64,000 nt of DNA, taken from an uncultured Desulfobacula sp. Its GTDB lineage: Bacteria > Desulfobacterota > Desulfobacteria > Desulfobacterales > Desulfobacteraceae. A program made the position numbers and the translations under genes. Under the pieces are notes generated by a model. The model searched no databases, had not been told where the DNA came from, and saw only the letters and a program-made list of their open reading frames with translations. Positions 1-13,537 of the stretch are shown in pieces. Within the stretch, counting starts at the first letter, position 1. Each line of letters opens with the position of its first letter. The stretch is taken from NCBI GenBank assembly GCA_964455805.1, contig CAYVZG010000002.1:66382-130381 (forward strand), in the 5' to 3' direction.

Positions 1-1315
1 CAGTAAAGCAGGAGCTAAAATCATAGGTGACGATACGGTTCTCATTTCTGAAAGCCTTATAAACGATGCATTGACAAAGACCCTGAAGCGCAAAGACCTT
101 TCGCTTTTTGCCAGGGATCATAAAAAGGATGTAACATTCAAAGAACATGATCCGGCCATCACCTGCATGACCATGGCCACCAGTGTCATCGATCCCTGGT
201 CCGGGAAAAAAAGGCCGGCGGAAAACGATGATCTTGAACGGCTTGTCAGGATTGCGGATCAATTGGAGTATATCAAAGTATCCGGTGGTCTGGTAACTCC
301 CCAGGATGTTAATCATACCGTCTGTGACTGGTATACCTGGGCGACCTGTATCAAGAATACGACCAAGCATATTACCGGTGGTGTTTTAGGGTACAGGGGT
401 GTGCAGGATGCCATTGAAATGGGCAGTATTGCTGCCGGCAGCAGGGAGGCATTTCTTAAAAGACCCTTTATCTCGGGCTGGGTACTTACGCTTCCTCCCC
501 TGGGTATGGATACGGCCTCTCTTGAAGCCATGATGGAAATGAACCGATACAATATCCCAATTATGCTGAGTTCCGGTCCGATTCTCGGCAGCACATCCCC
601 TGTTACCATTCCGGCCATGATCGCCCAGGCACATGCAGAGATCCTTGCTTGCATCACCCTTTCACAACTTATAAATCCCGGTGCACCCGTGGTTTATACC
701 AGCTTTGCCAGGGGTATGAATATGAAAACATCCAACATATCCATGGCTGGCCCCGAGTTCGCTGTATTAAAAGTGGCCATGGCTCAGATGGGTCTCTGGC
801 TTGATTTTCCTATCCGGATGCCATCCATGTTAAGGGATTCCAAAATACTGGATGCTCAGGCCGGGTTTGAAACGGGTATGGTAGGGACACTTTCTTCATT
901 TAATGCTGACATCATGGATGCCATGCAGCTGGATACGGATCTGGTTGTCGATTACCCGGACCTGGTATTCTGCAACGATTGTATGGCTTTTATCCGGCAT
1001 GCTTTAAGGGAAGTAAAAGTAGACCAGGCGTCTTTAGCCTTTGATTTGATTAAGGAGGTCGGGCCAGGCGGTAATTACCTGACCTGTCAGCATACGTTTA
1101 AGAACTTTAAAACTGAGCTATGGCACTCTGATCTGTTTGACCACGACAATTGGGAAAGCTGGAAAAACAAAGGGTCAAAGACCATCCGAGATAAAGCATT
1201 GGAAAAGATCTATACAATGCTTGAAATGGATTACCCATCCATTGTTTCCCCTAAACAGTCAATGGCCATAGATCTTATTGTTGAAAAAGCTGAGAATGAC
1301 TTACAAACGGCTTGA
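1..1315 (+). CDS. mttB: Trimethylamine methyltransferase (MttB/MtgB) superfamily protein, 5'-truncated by the window edge
   Basis: The frame is open from base 2 (SKAGAKIIGDDTV...). Family motifs: SPVTIPAMIAQAHAEILA, PGAPVVY, DSKILDAQAGFE, IKEVGPGGNYL. No in-frame TAG. Confidence 0.85.
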   Translation, partial: SKAGAKIIGDDTVLISESLINDALTKTLKRKDLSLFARDHKKDVTFKEHDPAITCMTMATSVIDPWSGKKRPAENDDLERLVRIADQLEYIKVSGGLVTPQDVNHTVCDWYTWATCIKNTTKHITGGVLGYRGVQDAIEMGSIAAGSREAFLKRPFISGWVLTLPPLGMDTASLEAMMEMNRYNIPIMLSSGPILGSTSPVTIPAMIAQAHAEILACITLSQLINPGAPVVYTSFARGMNMKTSNISMAGPEFAVLKVAMAQMGLWLDFPIRMPSMLRDSKILDAQAGFETGMVGTLSSFNADIMDAMQLDTDLVVDYPDLVFCNDCMAFIRHALREVKVDQASLAFDLIKEVGPGGNYLTCQHTFKNFKTELWHSDLFDHDNWESWKNKGSKTIRDKALEKIYTMLEMDYPSIVSPKQSMAIDLIVEKAENDLQTA

Positions 1316-4365: not shown

Positions 4366-5529
4366 ATGGACGAAAAGACACTTCTCAAAAAATTTGAAAA
4401 ACAATCTCAAAAACTGGATATCGTAAACCGGGAAAATGAAGAGTTGCGTTTTTTAATTGAAAACCAGCAAAATAATGATGAAAAATTTAAAGCGCTTTTT
4501 GCAGCGATCCCGATTCCAATATCAATTATTCGAAAAGTAGATAGTGAAATTCTTTTTGCAAATAATCATTTCTCAGAATTGATGGGATTCCAGGGGAAAG
4601 AACTTGTGGGCCGCAAAAACTTAAATCTGTTTTATGATCTATCAGACCGAAAATTTATACGGAAAACCCTTATGGAAAAAGGCTTTATAAAATCCTTTGA
4701 ATTTCGGGCAAAAACCAGTTCAGGCAAAATAGTTTGGCTGGTTACCTCAAGCCAGCCCACCCGCTTTCACGGAGAGGAGGCATATATTGCCGGATTTTAT
4801 GATATCAGTCAACGCAAGCAGGCAGAAAATGCTCAGATAGAGATGAACAAGTCCCTTGATAAAAAAGTCAAGGAAAGAACCATTGCCTTAAAGCGATTGA
4901 ATGAACATATTGTTAACTCCGAAGAAAATGAACGTAAAGCCATTGCAATGGATCTTCATGACAGTGTAACCCAGACCATTGGGCTGTGTATTTCAAAAAT
5001 TAAGAATTTCAAAGATTCAGATCCTTTATCTGATTTGGACACTATTCTTCAAATCCAGGGACACCTTGAACAGGCCAACAGGGAGATACGGTCTATTATT
5101 TACCAGCTCAGCCCCCCTGTTTTGGATGATTTTGATATTGCAGTGGCTATTGGATTCCTCATCGAAGAGAGCAATGAGAATTTGAATGCAAAAATTAGAT
5201 ATATCAACAATATTGATAAACCTGTTTCCCTTGCTCGGACCAATAAACTGACCATGTACAGGGCCGTCAGTGAACTGATTACCAATATTTTTAAACATTC
5301 GGGTTCTTTGGAAGCTCAAATTGAATTAACTGAAATTAAAAACAACATTCAGGTATCCGTTGAAGATAAGGGCAAAGGTTTTGATATTGACAGCATCCAT
5401 GAAGATAATTATGGCGGTTTTGGATTGTATAGCCTTTCTGAACGATTGATAAATATGGGGGGTCAATTAATCGTAAGTTCAACTATTGGAAAGGGAACCA
5501 AAGTTATCGTGTCTGTCCCTGTTATATAG
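4366..5529 (+). CDS. Soluble PAS-domain sensor histidine kinase (HisKA_3, NarX/NreB type)
   Basis: PAS/PAC segment, EENERKAIAMDLHDSVTQ H-box, ELITNIFKHS N-box, DKGKGF and GFGL G-boxes. Confidence 0.88.
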   Translation: MDEKTLLKKFEKQSQKLDIVNRENEELRFLIENQQNNDEKFKALFAAIPIPISIIRKVDSEILFANNHFSELMGFQGKELVGRKNLNLFYDLSDRKFIRKTLMEKGFIKSFEFRAKTSSGKIVWLVTSSQPTRFHGEEAYIAGFYDISQRKQAENAQIEMNKSLDKKVKERTIALKRLNEHIVNSEENERKAIAMDLHDSVTQTIGLCISKIKNFKDSDPLSDLDTILQIQGHLEQANREIRSIIYQLSPPVLDDFDIAVAIGFLIEESNENLNAKIRYINNIDKPVSLARTNKLTMYRAVSELITNIFKHSGSLEAQIELTEIKNNIQVSVEDKGKGFDIDSIHEDNYGGFGLYSLSERLINMGGQLIVSSTIGKGTKVIVSVPVI

Positions 5530-5555: not shown

Positions 5556-6137
5556 TTATTTATATCCTCTTTTTAATAATATCCCGGCCATTGCCGCGAA
5601 TTTCTTCTGGGATGGAATATCAAAATCCAGGGAGTCGGCAATACGATCAATGATATTGAAATAGGCGCATACATAAATCGCATCTTCAATGGCCTGGTGC
5701 TTTATGCCAGCTTCTATTAAGGGTTTAATGTCTTCCGGGCCCACTTGATAAGGCCTTAATGTTAATTTTTCCAAAAGCTTTAATGTTGTCTCCAATTTTT
5801 TGCTTATGGGTTCTTTGGATCCATCTGCCAATATGTCATTCACATAGGCTTTTCCAAGCACCTTTGATGCAACTGCACCATGGGCGCCCGTTCAGAACTG
5901 ACATTGGTTTTTTTTCGACACATAGGCTGCAAACAACTCTCGTTCTGCCACAGTCCAATCAGAAGGCCCTCTCATAATCTCATTTAACCCACGTCCATAA
6001 GGCTTTCCGAAAAGTTCAGGCCGATACATTGCGGTTCGAATGACATCTGATGCTTTGGAGCGTGTGAGGACACTGATGATACCCAATACAATCTTTTGCC
6101 TGAACCCATGCCCCGTCTCAACTTTTTTCAATCGCAT
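5556..6137 (-). CDS. AhpD/carboxymuconolactone-decarboxylase-like peroxidase, probable selenoprotein (CQFU, Sec at UGA 5892-5894), 193 aa
   Basis: ORFs 5892..6137 and 5556..5861 are in the same frame, separated by one TGA plus 10 sense codons. The joined sequence is ERELFAAYVSKKNQCQF-U-TGAHGAVAS, where TGA occupies the second Cys of the AhpD CxxC..H motif. A SECIS-like hairpin follows. Confidence 0.85.
5858..5887 (-). promoter_or_regulatory. Putative bacterial SECIS element for UGA 5892-5894
   Basis: Minus-strand RNA GCGCC-cau-GGUGC-[AGUU]-GCAUC-aaa-GGUGC forms a two-part stem. G is at loop position 2, and the loop begins 17 nt after the UGA. Confidence 0.65.
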
Positions 6138-6471
6138 GTTTTGCTCCTTTCAAGGCATTCAATCCTTGGTTTAAACGTCCGACACCAGCTCCCAAAGCTG
6201 CACTTAAGGTGATTTCAAAAACAGCATCTTCAGAATAACCTGCCTGTAATAATGCATTTATATCTTCATCTATCACTTTAAAGGCCTGATTTGATACCTT
6301 ATCCACATAGGATTCCAGTTCAAGAGGAATTTTTGGAAGGTTTTCCGGTTTTGTGCCGCCTGTTTGTCCGGATGATCTTGCCTTTACATTTTTTCTCAAT
6401 TCAGGATCTGTGTCGCCGGCCGTCGTACAGACGGCCTCAATCAGTTGTGATAAATTTAATTGGTTGTTCAT
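6118..6471 (-). CDS. Small AhpD/CMD-like helical protein without CxxC; partner of the downstream selenoprotein
   Basis: EDINALLQAGYSEDAVFEITLSAALGAG resembles the C-terminal half of the downstream protein (EDIKPLIEAGIKHQAIEDAI). The two genes overlap by 20 nt. Confidence 0.7.
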   Translation of the reverse strand: MNNQLNLSQLIEAVCTTAGDTDPELRKNVKARSSGQTGGTKPENLPKIPLELESYVDKVSNQAFKVIDEDINALLQAGYSEDAVFEITLSAALGAGVGRLNQGLNALKGAKHAIEKS

Positions 6472-6620: not shown

Positions 6621-6816
6621 GCCAATATTCCAGCACCCGAGGTGTGCTTTTTCTTAACTGCCATTTCATCCCCATGATCCCTGGTACACAAATGAACAAA
6701 ATCTAAAAATGAAATATTTGTTTCTTTTTATATTAGAATGAAATCTTTTTCTTGATTTACGCCTTTGAATCTGTTTTGAATTGTTGGGTACCTTAAATTA
6801 CAATAAGGAATTTACC

Positions 6817-8136
6817 ATGAACACGGATCGAGTGATTGAATTTATTTTAAAGACAAACTTTCATGATTTTCCCGAAAAAATCCAGCATCAGTCCAAACGA
6901 TGCCTCATGGATGCACTTGGTGCAATGATTTCCGGCACTCAGACCCCTGTTTGCGAGACCATGACAAAGATTGCGACCATGCAAATGGGAAATGGTAACA
7001 CCACCTTAATCGGTTCGGGAATTAAATTGTCTTCAATGGGAGCCGCTTTGACAAACGGATTTGCCGCCAATGCTCTGGATATTGATGATGGGTGCAGGCT
7101 GGCAAAGGGACATCCAGGTGCCAGCGTTCTTCCTGTGGCTCTGGCTGCAGCAGAAAATACTGACACCTGCAACGGACCAAAATTTCTTACCGCATTGATC
7201 ATAGGATATGAAACAGCCATTAGAGCTGCATATATCCGTCATGCTACAACATCTGTTTATCATTCATCCGGAAGCTGGGGGGCAATTGGTGGTGCCGCCG
7301 CAGCCGGAAAATTATTGAATCTGGATAAAATCACCCTGTTTAACGCTTTGGGAACATCTGAGTATCATGCCCCTATTGCGCCGATGATGAAAGGTATTGA
7401 AAAAGCCGGCATGGTCAAAGACAGTATTGGATGGGGTGCTCTTGTTGCCATGGCTTCCGTGGAAATGGCAAGGGCAGGATTCACCGGTATTCAGCCCATA
7501 TTTGATGACTCCCCCAACCCGGAATGGATCGATTCCCTTGGCAGGGATTTTGAAATCTTGAATCTGTTTTTTAAACCATACGCTGCCTGCAGATGGGCAC
7601 AACCCGGTGTGGACGGTGTCCTCAAAATTATGGAACAAGAAAATTTAACCCCGGAACACATCAGGAAAATCCGTATTTATACCTTTGGTGAAGCGGCTGC
7701 ATTGAGCCGCAATTATCCTCAGAATACTGAAGATGCCCAGTACAATCTTTCCTATCCCATTGCAGCGGCCGTATTTGATGGCCGGATCGGGCCGGAACAG
7801 ATGTTGCCGCCTCGAATTTTTGACAAAGACATCCTTGCTATGATGGACAGGATCAAAGTCATTGTTGAAGAAAAATTTCAAAATGAGTTCCCGGCCAAAA
7901 CCCTTGCTAATATAAAAATCGAAGATAACAGGGGCCGGGTCCATGAATCCGGTATCATGTCAGCCAGGTGGGATTTAAGTAATAAACTGCCGTCTGATAA
8001 GGAACTTGAAGAAAAATTTATATGGCTTGTTAAACCCGTTTTGGGTAAAACCCGTGCCCGGTTATTGAAGGATATGATCTGGAACTTTGAAACGGTTGAC
8101 TGCATCGACAATATGATTGTTCTGTGCGTTAAATAA
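6817..8136 (+). CDS. MmgE/PrpD family protein
   Basis: NGFAANALDIDDG, GHPGASVLPVALA, FKPYAACRWAQ, DAQYNLSY motifs. ATG at 6817 follows AAGGAA. Confidence 0.88.
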   Translation: MNTDRVIEFILKTNFHDFPEKIQHQSKRCLMDALGAMISGTQTPVCETMTKIATMQMGNGNTTLIGSGIKLSSMGAALTNGFAANALDIDDGCRLAKGHPGASVLPVALAAAENTDTCNGPKFLTALIIGYETAIRAAYIRHATTSVYHSSGSWGAIGGAAAAGKLLNLDKITLFNALGTSEYHAPIAPMMKGIEKAGMVKDSIGWGALVAMASVEMARAGFTGIQPIFDDSPNPEWIDSLGRDFEILNLFFKPYAACRWAQPGVDGVLKIMEQENLTPEHIRKIRIYTFGEAAALSRNYPQNTEDAQYNLSYPIAAAVFDGRIGPEQMLPPRIFDKDILAMMDRIKVIVEEKFQNEFPAKTLANIKIEDNRGRVHESGIMSARWDLSNKLPSDKELEEKFIWLVKPVLGKTRARLLKDMIWNFETVDCIDNMIVLCVK

Positions 8137-8159: not shown

Positions 8160-9629
8160 ATGACTACAGGTGGCCTAATAGGAGGCATTTACAAGCCTTT
8201 GACAGATCAGCAGATCGAAACCATTCATGAAAAAGCTCTTGATATCCTTGAGCAGGTGGGCCTTGGATATGAAGACAACCTTGAGGCGCTTGAAATGCTT
8301 AAAAAAGCCGGCTGCAAAATTGATGGCAACGCCCGCAAAGTATTTATGCCCCGGGGCCTTGTCGCAAAAATGGTTAACAAGGCACCCGGAGAATTCACAC
8401 TTTACAGCAGAGATGGAAAAAATGATCTTTTTATCGGTAAAGACAGGGTCTATGCCGGGACCGGCGGAACCACGGTGAGTATTCTTGATCTTGAAACCGG
8501 TAAAATGCGGGAAACCCTTCTCAAAGATCAGTACAAAATAAGCAAATTGGTTGACACACTGGATAATATTCATTTTTATCAAAGTGCCGTAGTCCCCCTT
8601 GATATACCTGGAGAACGCTATGATCCTAATATATTGTTTGCCGCCATGATGGGGACAAACAAACATATCATGTTTGGCTGTAACTTTTGTTCAGGACTGA
8701 GGGAATCATTTAAAATTGCCTCAATGGTTGTCGGCGGAGATGACATCCTAAGGACAAAGCCTGTATTCTCCATATCGGCCTGTGTCATTATCAGCCCGTT
8801 AAAATTTTGTTCTCAAAGCGTTGCAAATATTCAACAGGCGGCAAAACTGGGAATACCCACCACCATAACCAGTGCGCCCATGAGTGGTTCAACCGCTCCA
8901 ATGACAATGGCTGGTACGCTTTTGCAAACCCATGCAGAAGAGCTTGCGGGAATAACGCTCCATCAATTGACCGTACCGGGAGCACCTGTTCTGTATGGTG
9001 CCCTGCCGGCAAGAGCAGATATGAAAACCATGGGATACCGGGGAGGTGCCATAGAATGTGGAATGATGCAGGCGGCCCAGCACCAGCTCAGCCAGCGAAT
9101 TGACATCCCCAACTATGCATCATCAGGCTTGAGTGATTCAAAAGTTCCTGATGCACAGGCTGGCTGGGAAAAAGCCTTTACCACACTGTTGGCTGTTATG
9201 GGGGGAAATAATTATATTCACCATGCTGCCGGAATGCTGGAATCTATGAATGCTGTTGCATTTGAACAATATATTATTGATGATGAAATAATTGGAGCCA
9301 GCTGCAATTTGTTGAAAGGCATCTGCGTGGATGAGGAGCATCTGGGTTTTGATGCCATAAAAGAAGTAGGCCCGGGCGGACATTTCCTCATGAGTTCACA
9401 CACCTTAAAGCATATGCGGTCCGAATATTTTCAGGGCAACGGCATCAGTCACACGGCTAATAGAATCGCTTGGGAAAAACAGGGAAGCCCTGATACCTGG
9501 CAAAGGGCAAACAAAATGGCAAAATCGATCATTTATAATGATATTGTCCCCAAGATTGATGGGGACATTGAAGCACAGATAAGGGACCAATTTGATATGG
9601 CACTTGATCTGGGCAAGCAAAATCATTAG
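8160..9629 (+). CDS. mttB: MttB/MtgB-superfamily methyltransferase (non-pyrrolysine)
   Basis: IETIHEKALDILEQVG, APMSGSTAPMTMAGTL, PGAPVLYG, SSGLSDSKVPDAQAG, VGPGGHFL. No in-frame TAG. Confidence 0.92.
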   Translation: MTTGGLIGGIYKPLTDQQIETIHEKALDILEQVGLGYEDNLEALEMLKKAGCKIDGNARKVFMPRGLVAKMVNKAPGEFTLYSRDGKNDLFIGKDRVYAGTGGTTVSILDLETGKMRETLLKDQYKISKLVDTLDNIHFYQSAVVPLDIPGERYDPNILFAAMMGTNKHIMFGCNFCSGLRESFKIASMVVGGDDILRTKPVFSISACVIISPLKFCSQSVANIQQAAKLGIPTTITSAPMSGSTAPMTMAGTLLQTHAEELAGITLHQLTVPGAPVLYGALPARADMKTMGYRGGAIECGMMQAAQHQLSQRIDIPNYASSGLSDSKVPDAQAGWEKAFTTLLAVMGGNNYIHHAAGMLESMNAVAFEQYIIDDEIIGASCNLLKGICVDEEHLGFDAIKEVGPGGHFLMSSHTLKHMRSEYFQGNGISHTANRIAWEKQGSPDTWQRANKMAKSIIYNDIVPKIDGDIEAQIRDQFDMALDLGKQNH

Positions 9630-9737: not shown

Positions 9738-10658
9738 TTACTTATTTTTAAAAGATCTCATTTGCGTTGTATATTCATCATACCGTTGAAGACTTTTTAA
9801 CACCTGGTCAGGTAATCTATCGCTGAACTCTGAGCACAAAACAGTTAAAAAAGCAATGGGTGCCGTATAGCTTTCTCCAAAGGGCAAAAGATTAACAGGG
9901 ACATAAAGTGATATCTCTGATATATCCACCAGCGGTGACATGGGGGTATCTGTAATCGCAATAATATGTGCACCTCTTTTTTGCGCAATCTTCCCAATTT
10001 GTATTGTCTCTCTGGGGTATCTGGGAAATGAGAGCAGGAAAACGACAGAGTCTTTTGTTGTTTTTTCCAATGCCGCAAAAGAGAGTATGTCCGAATGCTG
10101 GATGATATCTGTCTGGTGGTTTATTTTGGATAGATTCTGGCCAAGGTATAAAGCAAGGGAAGATGCTGCCATGCTGCCGCTCACACAAATTCTGTCTGCC
10201 TTAAGCATGAGGTTCAGGCATTTATTATAATTTTCCTGATGTATGCTATCAAGTAATTTGGCCGTGTTGTTGATCTCCTGCTGAAGCAATTTGTAGTACA
10301 TGGATTTAGGCTCAAGGCTTTCCTCTTTATAATCATCCATAAATTTTTTAAGCTTGAACCGGTTAAAAGCCGTAAGGTCAGACTGAAGTGATTGTTGAAT
10401 CAGTTTTGTAAATTCCGTATACCCTTTTAAACCTAAAATCCTGCAAAACCTAACGATTGTTGCCGAAGAGACACCAGACTGTTTGGAAACTTTTGCAATG
10501 GGCATGAAAGCAATTTTTTTTGAGTGTTTCAATACAAAATCTGCAAAAATGCTATGCTGCTTGGAAAAACTATCTTTGTTGGTAATTATTTGGTCTAATA
10601 AATTTTTCAAATTAAACAAACCTTTGTAGAATGTTCTGAGTATAAGTACCAAAGGCAA
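9738..10658 (-). CDS. RpiR/MurR-family transcriptional regulator (HTH + SIS); true start may be near 10610
   Basis: IAKVSKQSGVSSATIVRFCRILGLKGY HTH; SFPRYPRET and AITDTPMSPL SIS motifs. Confidence 0.9.
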   Translation of the reverse strand: MPLVLILRTFYKGLFNLKNLLDQIITNKDSFSKQHSIFADFVLKHSKKIAFMPIAKVSKQSGVSSATIVRFCRILGLKGYTEFTKLIQQSLQSDLTAFNRFKLKKFMDDYKEESLEPKSMYYKLLQQEINNTAKLLDSIHQENYNKCLNLMLKADRICVSGSMAASSLALYLGQNLSKINHQTDIIQHSDILSFAALEKTTKDSVVFLLSFPRYPRETIQIGKIAQKRGAHIIAITDTPMSPLVDISEISLYVPVNLLPFGESYTAPIAFLTVLCSEFSDRLPDQVLKSLQRYDEYTTQMRSFKNK

Positions 10659-11845: not shown

Positions 11846-12076
11846 ATATTGCTTTAAAACAGGATAATTCCATGGCATTTTATATCCATAAAAAACGTGA
11901 AAAGCGTTTAATTGTGAGGGAAAAGCGGTTTTTAAAAACTCATTTTTCCTAATAATTGTGCATGGCATAAAAAGTTATAATTATCATGCTTGACACATAA
12001 AAAAGCCTCTGTTATCTGTAAAACCTATCTGGGATACTATAAAAAACAACACCAATACCTATTAATAGGAGACGTT

Positions 12077-13537
12077 ATGATCAACTCGGCATCAACACAG
12101 GCACGGCAACCCCATTTAAAAATTTTAACTGAAGATCAAATTTTTGAAATAACACGCGCAGCCTTTGATATCATGTTCAGTGTCGGTTTTAAGGTATTAC
12201 ATGCCGGAGCAAGGGATATGCTTAAGAAGGCCGGTGCCGTTGTGGAAGGAGAGCATGTAAGGGTTCCTGAATATATTGTTAAGCAATGCCTGGTTACAGC
12301 GCCTAATGGATTTACTCTTTATGATCGTCAGGGTAACCGGGCTCTTGAAGTGGAAGGTCGCAAAAGTTATTATGGCACATCCACTGGAAGCCCAAGAACA
12401 AAAGATGCTCTAACCGGGGAGATTCATCCCACAACTATTAAAGATATTGGTATTGGTGCACGGGTCGCAGATGCATGTGAAAATATTGACTGGGTCATGC
12501 CTATGGGTTCATCCCAAGATGTTCCTTCAATTGTTTCGGATCTTTACGATTTTGAAGCGGTGGTCACCAATACGACAAAGCCAATTGTTTTTCTGGGTTA
12601 TTCCGGTAGAGGAACCCAGTTGGTGTTTGAAATGGCTGCACAAATTGCAGGTGGTATGGACAAGCTCAGGCAAAAGCCGTTCCTTGCCGTTTATCCTGAA
12701 CCCATCAGCCCGCTTGTCCAACCGGATGAGGTCATTGACCGTATATTTGCGGCTGCGGATTATTTTATTCCCCAGGTGCCGGGGCCTGCCGTCCAGATGG
12801 GTGCCACAGGCCCTATGACCATGGCGGGTGTTATCACTATGATTACAGCAGAGTCATTGATGTGCCTGGTATTGGCCCAGTTACGGCAACCCGGATGCCC
12901 GGTTTGTCTGAGCGGAAATGTCCAGATATTAAATATGTCATCAGGTATCTTCGGTGTTGGATACCCGGAAATGAGTCTGGGTATATCTGCCCAGGCAGAA
13001 GTTGCCCAATCATTTAACCTACCAACCTGGGGATATGCGGGCTGCAGCGATTCAAAGGTGTTGGATGCCCAGGCCGGACTTGAGAGCGGATTTTCCATCA
13101 TTACCCAGGCCCTTGCCGGACTCAACCTGATCCATGATGTCGGTTATCTTGACCAGGCAATGGTCTGTTCAACCGCTCAACTGGTATTGGGAAATGAAGC
13201 GATTGGAATGACCCGCAAGTTCATGGAAGGTATAAGGGTAGATGAAGGAAGTATTGCTCGCCAGGTGATTGAGGATATTGGTCCCGGAGGTCATTATCTG
13301 GCACACAAACATACCCTTGACCATTGTCGTGATGCTGTATGGGGTTCAAAACTGCTCGCCAGGCAGCCCTATGAACGCTGGAAAGATGAAGGGGGAAAAG
13401 ACATGGCAGAACGAATCCAGGAGCGCCTGGTTGACATCCTTGAAAATCACAAAGTCCCGCCTCTGGATGAAAACGTCCTTGCAAAAATTAAAAAAATTAA
13501 GGATGCGGGTGTAAAAGAGCTGACCGGCAAGGTATAA
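12077..13537 (+). CDS. mttB: MttB/MtgB-superfamily methyltransferase (non-pyrrolysine)
   Basis: ATG 12077 follows AGGAGA. Motifs GATGPMTMAG, GYAGCSDSKVLDAQAG, NLIHDVGYL, GPGGHYL. Confidence 0.92.
   Translation: MINSASTQARQPHLKILTEDQIFEITRAAFDIMFSVGFKVLHAGARDMLKKAGAVVEGEHVRVPEYIVKQCLVTAPNGFTLYDRQGNRALEVEGRKSYYGTSTGSPRTKDALTGEIHPTTIKDIGIGARVADACENIDWVMPMGSSQDVPSIVSDLYDFEAVVTNTTKPIVFLGYSGRGTQLVFEMAAQIAGGMDKLRQKPFLAVYPEPISPLVQPDEVIDRIFAAADYFIPQVPGPAVQMGATGPMTMAGVITMITAESLMCLVLAQLRQPGCPVCLSGNVQILNMSSGIFGVGYPEMSLGISAQAEVAQSFNLPTWGYAGCSDSKVLDAQAGLESGFSIITQALAGLNLIHDVGYLDQAMVCSTAQLVLGNEAIGMTRKFMEGIRVDEGSIARQVIEDIGPGGHYLAHKHTLDHCRDAVWGSKLLARQPYERWKDEGGKDMAERIQERLVDILENHKVPPLDENVLAKIKKIKDAGVKELTGKV

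Follow-up and report, generated by a model that had tools for sequence, protein, structure and literature searches.

Read on its minus strand, part of the window (the 64,000 nucleotides of uncultured Desulfobacula sp. DNA analyzed here) holds two short open frames separated by a single TGA. Does this codon end a gene, or does it encode selenocysteine (Sec), and what would the complete protein do?

A single in-frame UGA in an AhpD-like gene

The list of open reading frames gives 6137-5892 (81 aa, ending in NQCQF) and 5861-5556 (101 aa) in the same frame. As the original prediction had noted, one TGA joins them, and the continuous translation is a 193-aa AhpD-like protein (5556..6137, minus strand) with that codon at residue 82, an assignment based on the frame list, the family model TIGR01926, and full-length homologues. 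The prediction was silent on the strand; the feature lies on the minus strand, and the plus strand is full of stops. The UGA (5892..5894, minus strand) is codon 82 and takes the second position of a CxxU motif, NQCQF-U-TGAH, where U is the predicted Sec. A Shine-Dalgarno-like AAGGAG (6144..6149, minus strand) stands 6 nt before the ATG, within the last codons of an upstream partner gene. Promoter and terminator scans remained at chance level, with 6 found versus 4.7 expected.

We compared 160 homologous loci, comprising the best 80 of 583 confirmed genome loci and the best 80 of 596 confirmed metagenome loci. Homologues had been expected to carry Cys or TGA at the Sec column, and this held for 160/160 of these best loci, with TGA in 96 and Cys in 64; the sequence is conserved on both sides of the column as one protein, and not as two separate genes. 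At the DNA level, the column holds only TGA, TGC, or TGT in the best 160 loci. The genome loci contributed 78 TGA and 2 TGC and the metagenome loci 62 Cys and 18 TGA; the query that led the metagenome scan was of Cys type, the set contains some near-duplicate loci, and the TGA:Cys proportions, reflecting search design, do not describe the make-up of the family. A search for more Cys forms in 400 genomes of the class of one genome in the set (G103) returned none at E 1e-45.

Protein databases yielded 52 relatives, mostly full length and 37 to 54% identical. In these, the column reads C in 34, W in 6, R in 2, S in 1, and L in 1, with a gap in 8, several of which stop exactly before it. As database letters at a TGA are unreliable, we counted codons instead. 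The six Trp entries (P0002, P0005, P0006, P0008, P0016, and P0036) likely reflect the genetic code chosen by gene callers, judging from the protein records. Separate halves of the protein are also among the entries (P0045 to P0052).

Sequencing runs added little on the codon itself. A contig from run X1 shows no difference across it, a match that is not independent since X1 may be the source sample. Run X2 gave no cover over the codon, and in X3 it was covered only by the end of one 151-nt contig.

A predicted SECIS element follows the UGA

The hairpin with an AGUU loop that had been placed within 5 nt of the UGA was recovered, its fold starting 1 nt after the codon. This predicted bacterial SECIS element (5855..5890, minus strand) consists of an 8-bp lower stem, a 2x2 internal loop, and a 6-bp upper stem. 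Pairing and covariation delimit a conserved core (5865..5880, minus strand) made of the upper stem and the loop (5874-5871), which is AGUU in the query and GGUC in most relatives. The loop begins 17 nt after the UGA. Folding energies ranged from -20.7 to -22.8 kcal/mol, with z scores of -2.7 to -3.6 in five fragments of 42 to 100 nt and of -0.8 when a 32-nt fragment truncating the lower stem was folded.

The published bacterial SECIS model specifies a loop of 3 to 9 nt with G in the first two loop positions, located 16 to 37 nt from the UGA, an upper stem of 4 to 16 bp, and an energy no higher than -7.5 kcal/mol (PMC13188914, Fig. 2 legend). In our own coding of these constraints, used in place of bSECISearch, the hairpin passed on all four counts (AGUU loop, 17 nt, 6 bp, -20.7 kcal/mol). 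As a chance control, 31 of the 697 TGA codons closing long open frames in the host genome (about 4%) passed the same model; none of the 697 was as strong as the query hairpin, by a stricter threshold set after the query had been seen.

A gap-free alignment of the window with the 78 TGA genome loci (from the best 80 of 583) showed how far the pairing is kept. In the upper stem, 98.7% of cells are paired and four of six pairs show changes on both sides, and neither shuffled nor slid controls attained its paired percentage or its covariation score. Covariation extends to the loop, whose first and last bases are G-C in 73 and A-U in 6. The lower stem is loosely kept, its eight pairs holding in 36 to 72 of 79 rows. 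Across the best 160 loci, 91/96 TGA forms preserve the full 6-bp stem together with an N-G-U-N loop, versus 0/64 Cys forms. Among loci that encode the same peptide, HGAVA, the 89 Sec forms have third codon positions that are fixed or covary, whereas in the 15 Cys forms these positions scatter and all six pairs are never found together. Thus, protein constraint does not explain the conservation of the SECIS element.

The host genome encodes the selenocysteine machinery

If the UGA specifies Sec, the genome should carry selA, selB, selC, and selD, as the original prediction had proposed to confirm. By family models, the genome carries selA (E 1.5e-177), selB (3.6e-101), selD (2.4e-101), and a tRNA-Sec (77 bits, anticodon UCA), each scoring above cut-off, and ARAGORN calls the latter tRNA-SeC(tca). 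dsrA is also above cut-off, which suggests that the host is probably a sulfate reducer.

Co-occurrence was sampled in 50 of the 80 genomes (48 with TGA, 2 with Cys). selA is present in 42 of 48 TGA-bearing genomes versus 0 of 2 Cys-bearing ones, two Cys genomes being too few for a test. The six TGA genomes lacking selA have selB in five cases, one of them an unpublished genome (G079), and a 77-bit tRNA-Sec in the sixth. selB was looked for and not found in either Cys genome. Both gave tRNA-Sec model hits above cut-off (51 and 57.5 bits); in control genomes whose selA scores fall short, this model still exceeds its cut-off, and we therefore consider such weak hits unspecific.

TGA or Cys at the column in 160/160 best loci, together with the Sec machinery, supports the earlier proposal of one Sec-dependent 193-aa protein. 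The mid-gene UGA very likely encodes Sec in a predicted AhpD-fold redox enzyme. As the first step of a mechanism, SelB would almost certainly bind the hairpin and deliver Sec-tRNA, letting the ribosome make the full 193-aa protein.

The protein probably belongs to a known class of predicted selenoproteins

TIGR01926 is the best NCBIfam model for the query (E 3.6e-21) and is matched by 40/40 aligned relatives at E 0.001. As the query scores 75.7 bits, under the curated cut-off of 81.8, we regard it as a close outlying subfamily and not as a formal member. The query does not reach the 23-bit gathering score of the CMD family PF02627 (17.1 bits, E 0.005), which many homologues carry. Other models were excluded: NF041238, the AhpD-related CFYUT selenoprotein, gave 37.9 bits versus a cut-off of 175 and describes a protein of about 357 aa versus 193 aa, and TIGR04030, TIGR04029 (Avi_7169/7170), and the YciW-related NF053654 gave 51.4, 18.1, and 14.2 bits against 233, 101, and 310. 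The best solved structures in profile searches were the AhpD-like proteins 6k40, 2oyo, 3c1l, 2pfx, and 2prr (E 2e-30 to 1e-23), led by Deinococcus 6k40 (2e-30) and including 2oyo (1e-26), with Pseudomonas aeruginosa PA0269 (2o4d) at 1e-4. The query would thus adopt the all-helical AhpD fold with its two-helix catalytic hairpin.

In 2005, Zhang, Fomenko and Gladyshev listed AhpD-like CxxU proteins (COG2128) as predicted selenoproteins (PMC1088965), and Zhang and Gladyshev counted them 299 times in a 2008 ocean survey (PMC2398784). Table 1 of a review lists "AhpD-like 1" under TIGR01926 as "predicted with high confidence" and experimentally unverified (PMC13188914), and BSepDB has a page for the AhpD-like protein (PMC13326102). 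The kind of selenoprotein is therefore already known, and the literature agrees with the original description of a recognized, uncharacterized class (PMC1088965, PMC13188914). The query shares with the published family the CxxU motif, the TIGR01926 match (just under cut-off), a SECIS element right after the UGA, and widespread Cys homologues; a cysteine-less partner gene is not mentioned in the published passages on the family. On the strength of the motif and the family model, the protein very likely belongs to this class (COG2128/TIGR01926).

Predicted active site and chemistry

The spacing of E67, C79, U82, and H86 equals that of E118, C130, C133, and H137 in Mycobacterium tuberculosis AhpD and of E36, C48, C51, and H55 in PA0269 (PMC3141380). 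By this spacing, Glu67 (5937..5939, minus strand) and His86 (5880..5882, minus strand) correspond to the proton-relay Glu and His of AhpD. His86 is conserved in 158/160 best loci; the invariance of W61, R66, and E67 was partly built into the scan patterns. The position equivalent to His132/Tyr50 is Phe in 155 and Tyr in 4 of the best 160 loci, which leaves the AhpD relay incomplete; this position is described as not absolutely conserved (PMC3141380).

Cys79 (5901..5903, minus strand), the first residue of CxxU, is Cys in 96/96 Sec forms and in 60/64 Cys forms, the other four having Ser or Thr, and position 82 is never lost. We infer from this pattern that residue 82 is the attacking residue and Cys79 likely the resolving one. 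According to Koshkin in 2003, the second cysteine of AhpD is reportedly the attacking one. One passage of PMC3141380 calls Cys130, and not Cys133, essential.

The relatives differ from the query in several respects. 6k40, 2oyo, and PA0269 have the same Glu..CxxC..His spacing, but with Cys in place of Sec and Tyr in place of the Phe before the second Cys, and they are single genes forming homo-oligomers, whereas the query gene adjoins a partner gene. M. tuberculosis AhpD, part of the Lpd-DlaT-AhpD-AhpC chain, shares the spacing of four of five relay residues, but its His132 is Phe in the query. In addition, its gene adjoins ahpC, whereas no peroxiredoxin gene recurs beside the query pair. We take 6k40 to be the AhpD-like protein of D. 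radiodurans whose mutant is H2O2-sensitive. A selenol is expected to raise a weak peroxidase rate. The topology of M. tuberculosis AhpD also differs, and the peroxidase activity measured for PA0269 was weak (PMC3141380). A D. radiodurans mutant in an AhpD-like gene is sensitive to H2O2, both cysteines of the protein being needed, and AhpD proteins draw electrons from lipoyl proteins (PMC8945050, PMC12028322).

By homology, Sec82, aided by a Glu67-water-His86 relay, would attack a peroxide or a disulfide, Cys79 would resolve Sec82 to a selenenyl-sulfide, and a cellular dithiol, for instance thioredoxin or a lipoyl protein, would re-reduce the enzyme. We consider this second step, taken as a whole, probable. 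Peroxide or disulfide reduction is our best guess for the activity, and the label "peroxidase" would likewise derive from homology. The enzyme might serve oxidative-stress defense in its dsrA-bearing, probably sulfate-reducing host.

The fold also serves other reactions, and a true selenoprotein might use its selenol on a specific small molecule, for instance dehalogenating it reductively, like the debrominase Bmp8 of AhpD fold, or taking part in the turnover of sulfur amino acids, a role proposed for Escherichia coli YciW, which is linked to cysteine metabolism (PMC11429811). The Phe at the relay His position and the lack of a peroxiredoxin neighbor fit this reading, as do conserved residues outside the relay (R39/H39, R56, S59, F160, and R165) that could line a pocket. 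The family profile does match Bmp8, but at E 3e-4, with the peroxidase-related structures far ahead (E 1e-23 to 1e-30), and no catabolic or biosynthetic gene recurs beside the pair. We judge this alternative to be rather unlikely, and retain peroxide or disulfide reduction.

A cysteine-free partner gene overlaps the selenoprotein gene

The original prediction overlooked a gene directly upstream (6118..6471, minus strand, listed as frame 6471-6118). It encodes 117 aa without cysteine and overlaps the start of the selenoprotein gene by 20 nt. Its product is a paralogue of the helical C-terminal half of the enzyme (hhalign 93.4%, E 2.5e-7) that lacks the active-site stretch, about 30 residues of that region being missing. 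TIGR01926 is matched by 52 of 67 partner members and TIGR04029 by 3, at E 0.01 at best. Across the 67 members, no alignment column has more than four cysteines. Clusters containing the partner in a protein atlas are only unnamed or CMD-labeled. A Pfam T7-like Y65 match (E 0.011) and matches to designed-repeat PDB entries were rejected as chance.

With the partner as sole tblastn query, a homologue was found at 77 of the 80 genome loci (best 80 of 583). A profile built from that set detected it at 71 of the 80 metagenome loci (best 80 of 596), an independent set. Considering those of the best 160 loci with at least 300 nt upstream, the partner is present in 92/93 Sec and 51/57 Cys loci. The partner frame could be called in 76 loci, where it overlaps the enzyme start by 1 nt in 43 and by 4 nt in 14; 68 of the 76 overlap the enzyme gene or lie within 20 nt of it, and in two the partner is downstream. 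A Chloroflexia genome carries partner and selenoprotein fused in frame (L083, 3665-4201), and database proteins P0002, P0050, and P0051 appear as fusions in their protein records. No longer fused form (355 to 2000 aa) was found at E 1e-20 among 7996 candidates; the fusions that we did find, of about 300 aa, are below that range. Partner genes placed downstream and not upstream were seen at L044, L064, L121, L123, L124, L130, and L132.

The selenoprotein gene is the second member of a conserved gene pair, and the partner is usually predicted to be translationally coupled to the enzyme. Similar combinations of an active AhpD-like unit with an inactive paralogue, joined or adjacent, occur in Avi_7170/Avi_7169 (TIGR04029 plus TIGR04030) and in YciW. 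The TIGR04029 and TIGR04030 genes are presumably adjacent or fused. A sestrin review describes bacterial AhpD proteins of sestrin-like type in which an active domain is joined to a cysteine-less one (PMC11429811). Unlike in all of these, the dead partner here has only about 110 aa and is mostly a separate gene. A literature search found no account of the gene pair; supplementary or BSepDB sequence lists may already include the gene.

From the gene context, the partner product is likely a subunit that binds the enzyme. In a third step, translational coupling would make it in step with the enzyme, and it would act as a non-catalytic scaffold, taking the position of the second subunit in a dimer or ring of AhpD type. 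We lean toward this step as a whole.

Alternatively, the enzyme might be a self-sufficient homo-oligomer and the upstream paralogue a transient helper in the operon, such as a folding aid, inhibitor, or regulator. Solved relatives are indeed homo-dimers, trimers, or hexamers (PMC3141380), the active-site region of the partner is short by some 30 residues, no partner was seen near 6 of 57 Cys forms with enough upstream DNA, and the partner is downstream in some loci. However, its near-universal adjacency across ten phylum labels, the 1- or 4-nt overlaps in 57 of 76 loci, and the natural fusions fit a fixed 1:1 relation better. We therefore regard the helper role as unlikely, and favor the scaffold subunit.

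Distribution and descent of the pair

In 60 relatives, no match exceeded the E 1e-26 level, versus 5e-86 for the query gene, and a search for the partner gene across 150 genomes from the host's family gave none. The GC content of the pair is 42% versus 40% for the genome. A quick maximum-likelihood tree, with an uncertain root, comprised the query, 3 paralogues, 96 Sec loci, and 60 of the Cys loci, the 4 short Cys rows being omitted. In it, the query, with a composition flagged as atypical, joined two Verrucomicrobiota-type sequences (SH-aLRT 98). Among Sec forms carrying ten phylum labels, the Cys forms fell into two groups, both well supported. This distribution would fit, short of proof, horizontal gain of the gene and reversion from Sec to Cys.

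Clustering of all frames in 81 loci gave no third conserved gene, and Pfam searches of 121 of 141 picked flanking frames (70-odd loci) revealed no third recurring gene. Specifically, among the 121 flanking frames, no peroxiredoxin, thioredoxin, or lipoyl gene recurred beside the pair.

Weighing the complete explanation

In the complete explanation, the UGA would be read as Sec, in an AhpD-fold redox enzyme that works with a cysteine-free paralogue from an overlapping gene. We modestly favor it in its entirety.

Could the TGA nevertheless be a true stop, arising from a pseudogene, an assembly error, or two small genes? About 4% of the host's ordinary TGA stops (31/697) pass the loose SECIS model, and separate halves exist in databases (P0045 to P0052). 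However, the same TGA is present in 96 related loci from many phyla with Cys as the sole alternative, the SECIS element is kept only with TGA, the codon co-occurs with the Sec machinery, and the X1 contig is identical, if not independent. A true stop is thus very improbable and appears already contradicted by the comparative data. Finally, that the UGA is read as Trp or Cys, through a changed genetic code or leaky read-through, is scarcely credible: Trp in 6/52 and Arg in 2/52 database homologues would suit it, but the best 160 loci have only TGA, TGC, or TGT, TGA ends 697 long host frames, and the single UCA-anticodon tRNA examined is called tRNA-SeC.

With Sec as the preferred reading of the UGA, we tentatively propose a broader synthesis, which as a whole we hold to be possible and somewhat short of probable. 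The pair would form a two-subunit selenoenzyme, an obligate hetero-oligomer of a Sec chain and a dead half-size paralogue, as the split-gene counterpart of the sestrin-like architecture of one active and one dead domain. It would travel as a free-standing cassette between at least ten phyla, its Sec having gone back to Cys on two or more occasions, and its SECIS core, almost unvarying, would be readable by different SelB proteins.

These results correct the annotation of a family that gene callers split into halves or mistranslate with Trp at the Sec column. They also supply a clean test set for a predicted selenoprotein class, with matched Sec and Cys forms and a natural fusion (L083), and make SECIS covariation visible in 96 sequences. 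A selenoprotein specialist would find little surprise in any of this. The dead partner is the sole part that we did not find in print, its role as a subunit being drawn from context; a conserved partner of this kind would explain failed expression of such proteins alone.

Other features of the locus and the host genome

The selenoprotein gene converges with a PAS histidine kinase gene (window 4366-5529), 26 nt apart. Around the pair lie two genes of the trimethylamine-methyltransferase family, one MmgE/PrpD gene, and a gene for an RpiR regulator (window 71-1315, 6781-8136, 8160-9629, and 9738-10658), and 11990-13537 resembles a third methyltransferase by eye; none of the methyltransferase, MmgE/PrpD, or RpiR neighbors recurs beside relatives. 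FG-GAP/ASPIC-UnbV repeat genes often flank the pair, only in Gemmatimonadota and Acidobacteriota (L043, L068, L072, L087, and others). Two Cys forms (L136 and L145) have Leu in place of His86 (C-x-F-C-x-x-M-L) and no partner found nearby; they possibly have a diverged function.

Elsewhere in the host genome, selD (L004, G000:C48:16963-17892) is itself a predicted selenoprotein gene with one TGA in C-G-U-A-A-K, and its hairpin passes the SECIS model with a GAUC loop at 21 nt. A weak dsrA-like match with two in-frame TGA (G000:C24:17639-18160, minus strand) may encode a further selenoprotein or be a damaged gene. The second AhpD-like gene of the genome, a distant one lying outside the window (L013, G000:C46:20105-20536), has a TGA in C-V-N-U..H, and its downstream hairpin fails the SECIS model as coded here; TGA-bearing paralogues resembling it occur in 4 of 36 same-genus genomes. 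A third AhpD-like paralogue (L094, G000:C50:9973-10275) has a plain C-D-Y-C..H motif with no stop.
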